A stretch of DNA of 64,000 nucleotides from Planctomycetota bacterium (GTDB lineage: Bacteria; Planctomycetota; UBA1135; GCA-002748355): NCBI GenBank assembly GCA_027021385.1, contig JALUUL010000079.1:126329-190328 (forward strand). Reading direction: 5' to 3'. The notes beneath the pieces are model-generated. The model made no database searches and was not told where the DNA came from. It was given only the letters and a program-made list of their open reading frames with translations. Positions 10,347-19,447 of the stretch are shown here, piece after piece (the first letter of the stretch is position 1; every line of letters starts with the position of its first letter). The position numbers and the translations under genes were made by a program.

Positions 10347-10363
10347 AGCAAGGTCCATGCCGG
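10347..10363 (-). promoter_or_regulatory. Sigma54 -24/-12 promoter for the leftward cytochrome/porin/Rieske-cytb operon
   Basis: Minus strand CCGGCATGGACCTTGCT: GG-N10-GC, close to consensus TGGCACGNNNNTTGCW, about 150 bp upstream of ATG 10199. Confidence 0.75.
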
Positions 10364-10443
10364 AGAACGGCCGTAGGGCGGACAGCTTGTCGCAAGATCA
10401 AGGAGTTCTCCCGGGGTTCCGATAGGGCTTTCGGAGGGGAAGC

Positions 10444-11199
10444 ATGCTTGGAATCGCGCGCTGGGGGGGCGCTGTCCTCTTGGGGACGATCGGGATGGCG
10501 GCCGGGGGAGAGGAAACGGTGACGGCCCTTGGCATGGAGATCTCCCCCTCCTCCCCGGTCGTCGCAGGGACCTCTGAGAGTTGCCTGTCCTGCCATCTTG
10601 ATCTTCGGGGGAGGGGGCACCCTCTTGGTGATCGAATGCCGGAGGGAAGCGGCCTGCCTGGGGAGGCGGCCTTGGGGCTCGGTTGCTTGACCTGCCATGA
10701 TTCGGGAACGGTCCGGGATGACCATCGAAAATCCCGGGCCTCCCACTTGCGGGAGATTCCTCGCGTCCTGTGCAGGCGTTGTCATCGGGATCCGGAACCG
10801 GGGTCGCGTCTGGGGCACACGATGGACCTCGGCAGGGCGCACGCTTCCGGAGGGAGGGAACGAGGGGACAGGAAGGCCTTCCTCGGTGGAGTGGACCGCA
10901 TATCCCTAGGATGCCTTGGCTGCCATGACGGAAGCGTCGCTTCGGAGGCCAAGGTCGACCTTCCCGGAGAGCCTCGGATTCCGGGAAGGGCCGGGTCGGG
11001 GCTGCAGCATCCGATCGGAGCCCGGTCCATGGTAAGAGGGGCGGAAACGACACCTCCGTCTCCGCGACCGACGAGGTCGGATGCGCGGGAAGGGATCCTC
11101 GGATGTCTGAGCTGCCACGATCCCTGGAGCCCCTGGGAATCCCAGCTCTCGAGGAACCCTGAGGACGGCGGACTCTGCAGGTCCTGCCACGTGAAATGA
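10444..11199 (+). CDS. Hexaheme cytochrome c with a C-terminal OmcE-like half
   Basis: 6 CxxCH; signal peptide; C-terminal SLGCLGCHDG..QHPIG..CLSCHDPW..LCRSCHVK. Confidence 0.85.
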   Translation: MLGIARWGGAVLLGTIGMAAGGEETVTALGMEISPSSPVVAGTSESCLSCHLDLRGRGHPLGDRMPEGSGLPGEAALGLGCLTCHDSGTVRDDHRKSRASHLREIPRVLCRRCHRDPEPGSRLGHTMDLGRAHASGGRERGDRKAFLGGVDRISLGCLGCHDGSVASEAKVDLPGEPRIPGRAGSGLQHPIGARSMVRGAETTPPSPRPTRSDAREGILGCLSCHDPWSPWESQLSRNPEDGGLCRSCHVK

Positions 11200-11245
11200 G
11201 CGGTTTCCCCGAGCCGCCAAGGGAAGCGTCATCTCTAACCGCCCA

Positions 11246-11261
11246 TGGTATGGTCTTTGCT
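11246..11261 (+). promoter_or_regulatory. Sigma54 -24/-12 promoter for the PPIase / 9-heme / NapC-like unit
   Basis: TGGTATGGTCTTTGCT (GG-N10-GC), about 30 bp upstream of ATG 11294. Confidence 0.72.
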
Positions 11262-11293
11262 CCGGACCGGAGAACCTCTTCCAGGATGCCTAC

Positions 11294-12373
11294 ATGATCT
11301 TCGCGACTCTCACCCTGAGCCTCGCTCTTCCCCTTCTTCTCCAGACGAGCCGACCCTCGGGAGGGCCGGTTACCCGGGAGTCGAAGGAGCGGGCGGGAAA
11401 ACCGGTGGAGAATCCTGTCCTTGCCGAGGTCGGGTCGGTGAAGATCCGCCAGAGCGATGTCCTTGCGGAGATCAACCGCCTGATTCCGCTGAACTTCTAT
11501 CACGGGAAGGTCCCCGTGGAGAAGATGGAATCCTTCCGGGACAAGGCCCTCCAGTCCCTGATCGAACGGGCCCTGATCCACCAGGACGCGCTCGCCTCGG
11601 GGCTGCGGGCGGGCGAGGAGGAGATCCGCGCGACATTCGAGGCCTCTCTGAAGAAGGCCGGTCCCAAGTACTCCGAACTCCCGTCCGAGGAGAAGGCGAA
11701 ACTCTTGGAAACATACCGGCCCCTCGTCGAGAGGAGGGTCTTGATCGACAAGAACGAGGCTCGTTTCGAAGCCTCCCTTCCTAAGGTCAAGGAGGAGGCC
11801 GTGAGGGCTACGTACGAGGCGAGGAAATCCAAGCTGCTGGCGCCCCGTGAGGGCCATTTCCTCCACATCCTCTTGAAGGTCGATCCCGGCGCCAGCGAGG
11901 CCGAGATCGCGAAGGCGAAGGAGAAGATGCTGAAGGCCCGGAAGGAGATCCTCGGAGGGCGCCCCTTCGCGGAGGTCGCGAAGGAGATCTCCCAGGATAT
12001 CTATGCCTCGAGGGGCGGGGACATGGGATGGGTCAAGGAGGGGAGTTTTCTCGGGGGGCCGGTCGGGGAGGCTGCGTTCAAGCTCGAGGCGGGAGAACTC
12101 TCGGAACTCGTCTCCTCGATCTATGGCTTCCATCTTGTCCAGTGTCTGGCCTGGAAACCGCGGAAGACGATGTCTTTCGAGGAAGCCAGAAAGAGTATCG
12201 AAATCGAACTCGAGGAGGCGATCCGGCGTTCGGCGCGGGAGCGCTGGCTGGCGACCCTGAGAGAGCGCTTTCCGGTGAAGATCCATCGAGTCGGGATCCT
12301 CGCGGAATCCCCGAAGGAAGAAACCGCTTCCTCGAAGCCGGCCTCCCGTCCCGGCCCGCATGGAGGGCGCTGA
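11294..12373 (+). CDS. Periplasmic PpiC/parvulin peptidyl-prolyl isomerase (SurA/PrsA-like foldase)
   Basis: Signal peptide, SurA-N-like helices, HILLKV...FAEVAKEISQD...GGDMGW...SIYGFHLV rotamase motif. Confidence 0.9.
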   Translation: MIFATLTLSLALPLLLQTSRPSGGPVTRESKERAGKPVENPVLAEVGSVKIRQSDVLAEINRLIPLNFYHGKVPVEKMESFRDKALQSLIERALIHQDALASGLRAGEEEIRATFEASLKKAGPKYSELPSEEKAKLLETYRPLVERRVLIDKNEARFEASLPKVKEEAVRATYEARKSKLLAPREGHFLHILLKVDPGASEAEIAKAKEKMLKARKEILGGRPFAEVAKEISQDIYASRGGDMGWVKEGSFLGGPVGEAAFKLEAGELSELVSSIYGFHLVQCLAWKPRKTMSFEEARKSIEIELEEAIRRSARERWLATLRERFPVKIHRVGILAESPKEETASSKPASRPGPHGGR

Positions 12374-12552
12374 CCTCCCGGCGGAACTGCGACGAACCGC
12401 CGCTTCCTTTTTCCATACTCGGGAATGGGTTTCGCCCGAAGGAAAGCAACGATGAGGACTCGAGTGCCGGGCGTTTCCAGGGCCTCGGACATGCTCCCGG
12501 TTCCGGCGCTTGGAACATCCGGGCGGAGTTCCTCCTTGGGGAGGGTCGAATC

Positions 12553-18500: not shown

Positions 18501-19024
18501 ATCGAGAGGCCGGGATGCCCTTCCTCCTCCTCGAGGAGGGTGATCCCCGCGAGTCGCACGGTGTCGGGGAGTTCGAGGATCTCGTGGTAGGGCTTTCCTT
18601 TCAGGGGCTTCCAGCGTAGATCGAGGTGGCTGCGATCCAGGAAGAGGGTCCTCGATTCGGTTCCCTCCTGCACGGCCATCCGCCCCTCGTATCCGAAGGT
18701 CCGGGACACCCAACCTCCGAAGAGGAGCAGGACGATCGAGAAGTGGGTGAGGACGAAGGCCCACTGATGCCGTTTGATCGGGATCCGGTTGATGACCGCC
18801 ACGATCAAGTTGACGGCGATCAGGAAGAGGAAGAGATCGAACCAGGCCGTCCGGTAGACCCAGGATTGGGCGAAGGCCCTTGAGGTCGAGGATTCGATCA
18901 GGGTCCCGACGATCATCGCGACCACCCCGAAGATGAGCAGGACCATCGTGAACTGGACCTTGCCCAGGAAGCGGAGGAAGCGGAGGGCCGCGGGTTCTGT
19001 CTTCGTGCTCATGCGGGCGTCCAT
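15521..19024 (-). CDS. ccsBA: Fused System II cytochrome c synthase (ResB/CcsB plus CcsA/ResC)
   Basis: N-terminal ResB-like TMs ([28 protein letters not shown]) and C-terminal WWD domain [27 protein letters not shown]. Start could be 19012, 19024 or 19033. Confidence 0.95.
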   Translation of the reverse strand: [1167 protein letters not shown]

Positions 19025-19153
19025 CCCGGTCAACCGGGTACGGAGGAAGGCTCGGTCCGCCCTTCCCCGGGAGGCTTCCCCCCCCCGGGAGGTCCGGCGG
19101 TCATTCGGGTCCGAGGGAACCCGAGCGGAACGATGTCGGCGACGCGGAGGTAG

Positions 19154-19170
19154 TGCAAGGCACGTGCCGG
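19154..19170 (-). promoter_or_regulatory. Sigma54 -24/-12 promoter for ccsBA
   Basis: Minus strand CCGGCACGTGCCTTGCA, a near-perfect match to TGGCACGNNNNTTGCW. Confidence 0.82.
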
Positions 19171-19344
19171 GAAGCGGCCTTTTTTCGATCGGATTTCCCG
19201 AAGAGAAGGAAGGTGGACGATCTGCCGAAGTCTCGGCGAGTCTGCCAAGAACTCGTCGTCACGGAGGATTGATTCAGGAAAAAATGCCGTGGCCCCTTCC
19301 GGGGTGGGGTATTTTTCCATGCCTGCCCGAGCCTCGCAAAACTT

Positions 19345-19363
19345 TGTCATCGCAATGTCATCG
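19345..19363. promoter_or_regulatory. 11-bp-spaced direct repeat TGTCATCG (Pho-box/OmpR-family-like operator)
   Basis: TGTCATCG at 19345-19352 and 19356-19363, in the divergent ccsBA/omcE-like intergenic region. Confidence 0.45.
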
Positions 19364-19431
19364 AATGCATGGCGGGGACCCGGAAAAGGATGCGGCAATT
19401 GCGCACGAGGTCCGGGGCCGTCTTTTCCGGG

Positions 19432-19447
19432 TGGCCTGCTTGTTGCT
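19432..19447 (+). promoter_or_regulatory. Sigma54 -24/-12 promoter for the omcE-like gene
   Basis: TGGCCTGCTTGTTGCT (GG-N10-GC), about 120 bp upstream of the start. Confidence 0.75.

Follow-up and report, generated by a model that had tools for sequence, protein, structure and literature searches.

How a cell switches on the genes for a cytochrome nanowire and its accessory proteins is the question raised by a 64,000-nucleotide stretch of a Planctomycetota genome (assembly GCA_027021385.1, contig JALUUL010000079.1, positions 126,329–190,328; hereafter the window), in which a gene for an OmcE-like tetraheme cytochrome lies among multiheme cytochrome, putative conduit, foldase and cytochrome maturation genes, followed by genes for a membrane histidine kinase and a sigma54 enhancer-binding protein (EBP). 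The signal for building cytochrome nanowires is poorly defined, and this locus offers a full chain of sensor, activator, enhancer and promoters. Four elements in it are likely to be the sigma54 promoters of an OmcE nanowire and porin–cytochrome locus. We lean, on the strength of sequence comparison, towards a reading in which the kinase would respond to how reduced the quinone pool is and phosphorylate the activator, the activator would bind a tandem palindrome at 19223–19258, and the sites would drive the nanowire and conduit genes. In what follows, G000 denotes the genome under study, other G-numbers denote relatives of the same class (comparison set of 339 genomes) and L-numbers denote individual loci.

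Site 1 (CCGGCATGGACCTTGCT, 10347–10363, minus strand, predicted start ~10336) faces the block that runs from a pentaheme cytochrome gene to a Rieske gene; site 2 (ATGGTATGGTCTTTGCT, 11245–11261, plus strand, predicted start ~11272) faces genes for a PpiC foldase, a 9-heme cytochrome and a NapC-type 14-heme cytochrome; site 3 (CCGGCACGTGCCTTGCA, 19154–19170, minus strand, predicted start ~19143) faces a fused resB-ccsB gene; and site 4 (GTGGCCTGCTTGTTGCT, 19431–19447, plus strand, predicted start ~19458) faces omcE. The first-pass annotation, made from the letters of the DNA, had picked out four GG-N10-GC elements with a TTGC box, and all four were recovered, each intergenic and aimed at a gene. 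Each has GG at −24, GC at −12 and a gap of 10 bp between the two, close to YTGGCACG-N4-TTGCW, the consensus quoted in PMC2725144; site 4, with TGGCCT at −24, is the weakest of them. When two mismatches were allowed, the consensus was matched 26 times in the window, which is the level of chance (26.1); the signal therefore lies in site quality and position, and genome-wide tests were performed with gene calls made for the analysis (2748 genes, 3.69 Mb). Genome-wide, 17 matches to the strict pattern YGGYAY-N5-TTGC were counted: 14 are intergenic and directed toward a gene, none is intergenic and directed away, and 3 fall in coding sequence; sites 1–3 are three of the 17. Two matrices were used for scoring, a genome-trained one built on 11 sites outside the window and an external one built on 25 sites that precede omcE genes on metagenome contigs, which is not fully independent because its sites were chosen using the first. 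With the external matrix, sites 2, 1, 3 and 4 rank 1, 7, 9 and 34 among ~7.4 million positions, and with the genome-trained matrix sites 2, 3 and 1 rank 5, 12 and 19. Site 4 scores 8.0 with the latter; among 1511 upstream regions, 41 score at least as high in sense and 22 in antisense orientation, so that the support for this site comes from conservation. Per-spacer chance in 3000 Markov-1 samples was 0, 0, 0.001 and 0.003 for the four sites. A matrix scan with a GC-matched background had been proposed together with the elements, with equal frequency in shuffled sequence as a refuting outcome; with the external matrix they reached genome-wide ranks of 1–34 and a per-spacer chance of at most 0.003. 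The remark that no match of equal quality was seen in the housekeeping intergenic regions checked by eye stood with the external matrix and failed with the genome-trained one, by which a match at 49080 (+) scores 12.3, above site 4. This match (49080–49096) is one of 20 GG-N8-TTGC matches in the window, 7 of which are intergenic, lies 242 bp before the gene at 49339 and is a possible extra sigma54 site outside the locus. A sigma54-like match at 23000 (+) within the kinase gene was discarded: it consists of codons of the G2 box T-G-L-G-L-A, hence its recurrence in orthologs.

An account in which the elements are fortuitous matches, or RpoN binding sites that stay silent, and the locus is transcribed from sigma70-type promoters is very unlikely. 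Such an account could point to the chance-level count of the loose consensus, to the weakness of site 4 and to seven genomes that keep the same gene set without these sites; it is opposed by the 14-to-0 orientation bias of the strict pattern, by the conservation of the sites with the palindrome at fixed geometry, and by a sigma70 scan of 16 kb, whose single match, the number that chance would give, does not lie at the promoters of the locus.

The palindrome, TGCCGA-N4-TCGGCA, was revealed by comparison of the omcE spacers of G000 and G006, a genome of a different genus. It stands in two copies at 20-bp pitch (19223–19238 and 19243–19258) between the divergent resB-ccsB and omcE promoters, 52 bp from site 3 and 172 bp from site 4, and is a candidate enhancer common to both. 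An enhancer matrix built on 16 sites from other genomes found 7 tandems in G000, of which the one at 19223 came first (35.6 bits) and one at 24545 second (23.7 bits). Across the class, an omcE match was found in 15/339 genomes and an activator ortholog in 9/339 (the 4 best candidates were scored per genome, and 10 genomes were rechecked in full). Palindrome and sigma54 site precede omcE in all seven genomes in which kinase and activator genes are linked (G000, G006, G212, G221, G236, G291 and G338; linkage in G006 was inferred across a contig break, and the G212 activator is cut by a contig end) and in 1 of 8 genomes without a linked pair. Fisher tests gave 0.0014 by genome and 0.010 by genus, values that overstate the association because related genomes are not independent. 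G006 keeps all four sites and has a fifth with its own tandem palindrome; this fifth site, before the 13-heme gene, is absent in G000 (best score 3.2). Site 3 is kept in G006, G212, G221, L212 and L218, and stronger sites stand at the position of site 4 in 7 other genomes. Because its paired dyads are retained ahead of orthologous sigma54 promoters and tend to occur where the activator does, the element at 19223–19258 is probably the binding site of the neighbouring activator.

Several observations weigh against this assignment or against the reading as a whole. The enhancer consensus was originally spotted in G000 and G006, so the test is not fully independent, and the relatedness of the genomes bears on the co-occurrence counts as well as on the Fisher values. 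G305 has palindrome and site with no activator ortholog found (the genome is 81% complete); G012 has an unlinked pair and no sites at omcE; and G226 has an activator with no tandem at 20-bp pitch when at most 1 mismatch is allowed. On the supporting side, G054, which has an activator and no omcE match, holds an exact tandem 1.6 kb from the activator; it faces a monoheme gene whose site is weak (7.4). The exact pattern was matched in 7/339 genomes of the class, 5 of them omcE-locus genomes; the G000 copy is too degenerate for it, and the other 2 matches are likely chance because no site lies nearby and a reversed control also gave 2 matches. The recurrence of the order omcE–NHL–kinase–activator in other loci speaks for the reading. 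L023 (G028), L025 (G021) and L029 (G012) keep the gene order of the locus without sigma54 sites, the omcE spacer holding a different conserved, AT-rich block that by its sequence is probably a sigma70-type promoter, so that the regulation of the locus has changed at least once.

A second tandem copy (24545–24580) starts 3 bp after the stop codon of the activator gene and is followed by a third, single palindrome at 24644–24659. The second tandem also follows the activator in G006; in G000 no promoter was found after it, and its second copy scores terminator-like. In L146 and L112 a tandem with promoter and cytochrome genes stands at the matching position, and since these loci carry the full layout, the tandem of G000 is likely a relic of it; a remote enhancer and a terminator are the alternatives. 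Between the enhancer at 19223–19258 and site 4, a direct repeat of TGTCAT with 11-bp pitch (19345–19362), which we take to be Pho-box-like, could be the site of a second regulator; it is unique in this genome, its pattern was matched in no other locus examined, and a looser version was seen by eye in G006. No IHF consensus was found in 19101–19500.

The activator gene (23151–24542, plus strand) had been named as that of an enhancer-binding protein, and the domains agree: it encodes an NtrC-family response regulator with a receiver, an AAA+ domain with GAFTGA and a Fis-type helix-turn-helix (HTH) whose recognition helix reads RTTFQSK. The helix RTT(F/L)QS(K/R) is present in all 16 activator rows at ≥55% identity and in none of the other EBPs of this genome. 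The presence of rpoN, which had been left for confirmation, was established: there are two genes, L001 (G000:C70:17159-18577) and L002 (G000:C14:95437-96759), both above the curated cut-off and both with all three sigma54 domains; the C14 copy precedes short genes that resemble hpf, ptsN and HPr by sequence. The genome encodes 18 EBP-like proteins, one of them without a DNA-binding domain. This 307-aa protein (G000:C86:140725-141648, plus strand) has GAFTGA and neither receiver nor HTH, its gene ends before a convergent gene, and by analogy it is a candidate enhancer-independent activator.

Which activator opens sites 1 and 2 is less direct. Sites 3 and 4 have the candidate enhancer close by. 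Sites 1 and 2 have none at such range, the nearest tandem being ~8 kb away, and no tandem was found from −1500 to +600 of the gene start behind site 1 or in 8000–13500, which counts against a single regulon. So does the loss of the sites among pair-bearing loci, where site 1 is missing or weak in 3/6 and site 2 in 2/6. On these grounds, the linked pair may drive only resB-ccsB and omcE, and another EBP, for example the HTH-less 307-aa protein, may open sites 1 and 2 enhancer-independently. The number of EBP-like proteins, the GAFTGA motif of the 307-aa protein and its end ahead of a convergent gene fit such a division, and FlgR is an EBP described in PMC12471899 as acting enhancer-independently; we nevertheless consider two separate regulons rather unlikely. 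Site 1 was found in 3/6 loci with the pair and 0/9 without, and site 2 in 4/6 and 0/8 (G305 and one duplicate row are omitted from these counts, and a metagenome locus is 'without' the pair when none lies in the retrieved DNA). Site 1 is kept in G006 (score 16.7) and G291 (14.4), and site 2 in G006 (19.3), L212 (12.6) and G291 (9.3). A search for a second motif common to the upstream regions of both sites returned none, the sole shared dyad being codons of the CxxCH motif. Since the two sites are restricted to loci with the pair, we give a slight preference to their being opened by this activator too, with no enhancer close at hand, either from solution or by long-range looping. In Desulfovibrio, no enhancer was predicted for 23 operons that have sigma54 promoters (PMC4641369). 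The first-pass annotation had the units of the locus switched on together in a locus-wide regulon. This holds for sites 3 and 4 insofar as they share a conserved candidate enhancer tied to the activator; for sites 1 and 2 the same activator is a tentative assignment, and 'locus-wide' was overstated, as the hexaheme cytochrome gene between sites 1 and 2 (10444–11199, plus strand) has no sigma54 site of its own, which limits the reading. Between the hexaheme and pentaheme genes of G291 and G305 a dyad like TGTCGCA-N3-TGCGACA was noticed by eye (L064 near 2420, L075 near 2655), of which the window holds a half-site only (10388–10394).

Beyond the class, an exact scan for the tandem pattern in genome contigs gave at least 121 stretches, of which 80 were retrieved with flanks and 78 were kept after removal of the duplicates L117 and L139. 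Among these 78 listed loci, a sigma54 site (score ≥10) is aimed away from the tandem within ~320 bp in 28 and toward it in 2, against 3.0% of 13047 control positions. Within 7 kb of the tandem, an activator of ≥55% identity was found in 11 of the loci, a kinase in 8 and a cytochrome with ≥3 hemes in 16; such loci come mostly from Myxococcota and Planctomycetota records, and some repeat class-genome loci. The remaining 59 listed loci show neither pair nor multiheme gene within reach, and 4 of them adjoin Acidobacteria EBPs with a similar recognition helix; both facts tell against a motif exclusive to this regulator. As different EBPs stand near the palindrome in the Acidobacteria, the motif is not exclusive and is read by a wider EBP group. 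The EBPs in question (L091, L113, L119 and L155) carry the helix KRTTLQS(K/R) and are encoded close to this palindrome, which suggests a helix-to-motif code common to distant EBPs. In five Myxococcales loci (L110, L121, L135, L149 and L163) the tandem lies between divergent sigma54 sites of a block with a 25- to 34-heme cytochrome and of a tetraheme gene; the neighbours in L110 resemble, judged by sequence, a conduit protein and Fe-S/NrfD-type genes. Metagenome omcE loci were analysed from the best 80 of 367, 63 of them with enough upstream DNA and falling into 46 groups. A sense site of score ≥10 was found in 18 groups and an antisense site in 6, at 1.9% in control windows, and the tandem was found in 3 of the 80 loci, each with a sigma54 site and 2 with the linked pair. 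Sigma54 control of omcE is therefore widespread, and the enhancer marks one regulator lineage.

The kinase gene (21820–23154, plus strand) encodes a membrane protein with a RegB-type quinone loop, GGVENPF (22090–22110), and an arginine in the first transmembrane helix (TM1). Its membrane part aligns with RegB-named proteins, with 27% identity over 447 aligned residues to one of them, and it keeps the equivalents of RegB R31, N110 and F112. The sections of PMC3000548 consulted tie four RegB residues to quinone binding, describe the loop as GGXXNPF and report that RegB is inhibited by oxidised ubiquinone. Signalling by quinone, the reduced pool being the activating state as in RegB, is by analogy an evenly balanced proposition. 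The resemblance to RegB is incomplete: the score with the RegB model NF033792 is 114.4 against a cut-off of 350, a PilS-like 6TM match (PF25323) is above its cut-off, and the loop is broken in 2/16 kinase rows (DGVENPF and DSVENPF; 3 with a near-duplicate). Valine occupies the column of RegB Q38, and isoleucine stands where RegB-like rows hold cysteine, in the column that we presume to be that of Cys265. With these two residues missing and the score below the family cut-off, the protein is RegB-like in its working at best and was not filed as RegB. Planctomycetota use menaquinone.

The same facts were weighed for a kinase that reads an envelope or assembly cue (unprocessed OmcE, apo-cytochrome), or a thiol state through a cysteine of the DHp domain, with promoters, enhancer and activator unchanged. 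PilS senses pilin in the membrane, and the PilS-like match and the missing Q38 and Cys265 equivalents fit such a cue, as do a cysteine 12 residues after the phospho-histidine in 15/16 kinase rows and the presence of foldase and maturation genes among the targets. The loop itself fits the quinone motif of RegB and the protein aligns with RegB-named sequences, and the targets in other phyla are various respiratory cytochromes, often without omcE; an envelope or thiol cue is accordingly held to be a doubtful alternative.

In the quinone reading, a reduced pool would activate the kinase through the RegB-type loop, and the kinase would phosphorylate the activator. Bound to the tandem palindrome at 19223–19258, the activator would open the divergent resB-ccsB (site 3) and omcE (site 4) promoters. 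The omcE gene is followed by a strong hairpin (20277–20309, plus strand, z −5.8) that lacks a U tract and was not called as a terminator; it would allow partial read-through into the NHL, kinase and activator genes, and no sigma54 site was found before the NHL gene (20461–21690, plus strand). Transcription of omcE past this hairpin would yield more kinase and activator, a positive feedback that we regard as a little more probable than its absence. The abundant activator might then open the strong sites 1 and 2, from solution or by long-range looping. We put forward more tentatively, as somewhat below an even chance, that the whole is a switch devoted to extracellular electron transfer and set by quinone, with RegB-type sensor, sigma54 activator, own enhancer and positive feedback, a module that moves across the Planctomycetota and the Myxococcota and turns on whole nanowire, conduit and maturation programmes. 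If so, the kinase would decide when the cell makes its electron-export wire, by the backing up of the quinone pool, and the module would lend itself to use as a portable, redox-controlled switch. Searching with the enhancer also leads, among uncultured Myxococcota and Planctomycetota, to 25- to 34-heme cytochromes, conduit-like blocks and OmcE genes.

The genes behind the sites were assigned as follows. Leftward from site 1, all on the minus strand, lie genes for a pentaheme cytochrome (9465–10199), a 648-aa protein (7522–9468), an NHL protein (6482–7519), an 11-heme cytochrome (4761–6485), a 13-heme cytochrome (2957–4411), a TlpA-TPR protein (1923–2930), a second pentaheme cytochrome (1099–1926) and a Rieske protein (649–1071). 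A gene for a 349-aa membrane protein follows the Rieske gene and runs off the window (1–649, minus strand); its product is likely the cytochrome b of a bc-type module, to judge by its sequence. Rightward from site 2, on the plus strand, lie genes for a PpiC/SurA-type foldase (11294–12373), a 9-heme cytochrome with a hydrophobic stretch at the C-terminus (12553–13836) and a 14-heme cytochrome with an N-terminal NapC/NirT domain (PF03264; 13838–15499). For the last, 'quinol oxidase' had been proposed; the PF03264 match makes it likely a NapC/NirT-family quinol dehydrogenase, and a search of the Protein Data Bank with this protein gave no match. The fused ResB-CcsB protein of system II cytochrome c maturation is encoded at 15521–19024 (minus strand). 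The OmcE-like tetraheme cytochrome is encoded at 19559–20251 (plus strand; the start may be 19550, 19559 or 19568) and matches 9YUQ (E 1.5e-12) and 7TFS (E 5.9e-11); between it and the kinase gene, the NHL gene at 20461–21690 encodes a beta-propeller protein. Among the features of an OmcE cluster, OmcE, multiheme cytochromes and two NHL proteins are thus present, and the large outer-membrane beta-barrel of the conduit is putatively the 648-aa protein, which has no Pfam match and was assigned from the cluster layout by comparison with PMC13712944. A tRNA-Val(GAC) gene (24787–24863, minus strand) marks the right edge of the locus, whose guanine-plus-cytosine content is 0.60–0.635 against 0.668 for the genome. 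A genomic island at this gene was considered and dropped, no repeat of the tRNA 3′ end (12–20 nt) being found in the genome, and an Rfam scan of 1–30000 returned tRNA only.

Among known systems, the Desulfuromonadia OmcE cluster of PMC13712944 combines OmcE with multiheme cytochromes, two beta-propellers and a large beta-barrel, and resB/ccsB lie in its vicinity. The present locus has these features too, the barrel putatively, and adds the NapC-type protein, the Rieske block, the foldase and the regulator pair; the words 'promoter' and 'planctomycet' have zero occurrences in the main text of that paper. The kinase has the GGXXNPF loop and the TM1 arginine in common with RegB/PrrB (PMC3000548); it differs in the absent Q38 and Cys265 equivalents, in missing the family cut-off and in its partner, a sigma54 EBP instead of RegA. 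The DVU3142 regulon of Desulfovibrio (ohcBAC), in the sections of PMC4641369 consulted, likewise combines a neighbouring EBP, upstream sites and a sigma54 promoter predicted for a multiheme electron-transport complex, and has a single operon as target, unlike this locus; TGCCGA and TCGGCA are absent from the main text of that paper, whose motif logos stand in figures and supplements. The literature, surveyed through titles and abstract starts with few subscription papers covered, gave no description of the motif or of multiheme genes with a sigma54 activator paired to a RegB-like kinase. The closest precedent for the promoters is Geobacter sulfurreducens, for which the sections examined of PMC2725144 (PromScan, 2009) likewise report predicted RpoN promoters at omcE and its neighbours (promoter 47 before omcE, GSU0618, and promoter 15 before GSU0615-0617, with promoters 4 and 38 preceding the similarly built GSU3221 and GSU3222-3226), give a 1.26-fold change of omcE on RpoN overexpression, and describe no enhancer or cognate activator for omcE. 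The sigma54 promoters alone are hence ordinary, with a predicted precedent in Geobacter; compared with it, the present locus adds sites at the maturation and foldase genes, a linked kinase/activator pair and a candidate enhancer, and what is new is this candidate enhancer together with the pairing of a RegB-type kinase and a sigma54 activator at multiheme genes.

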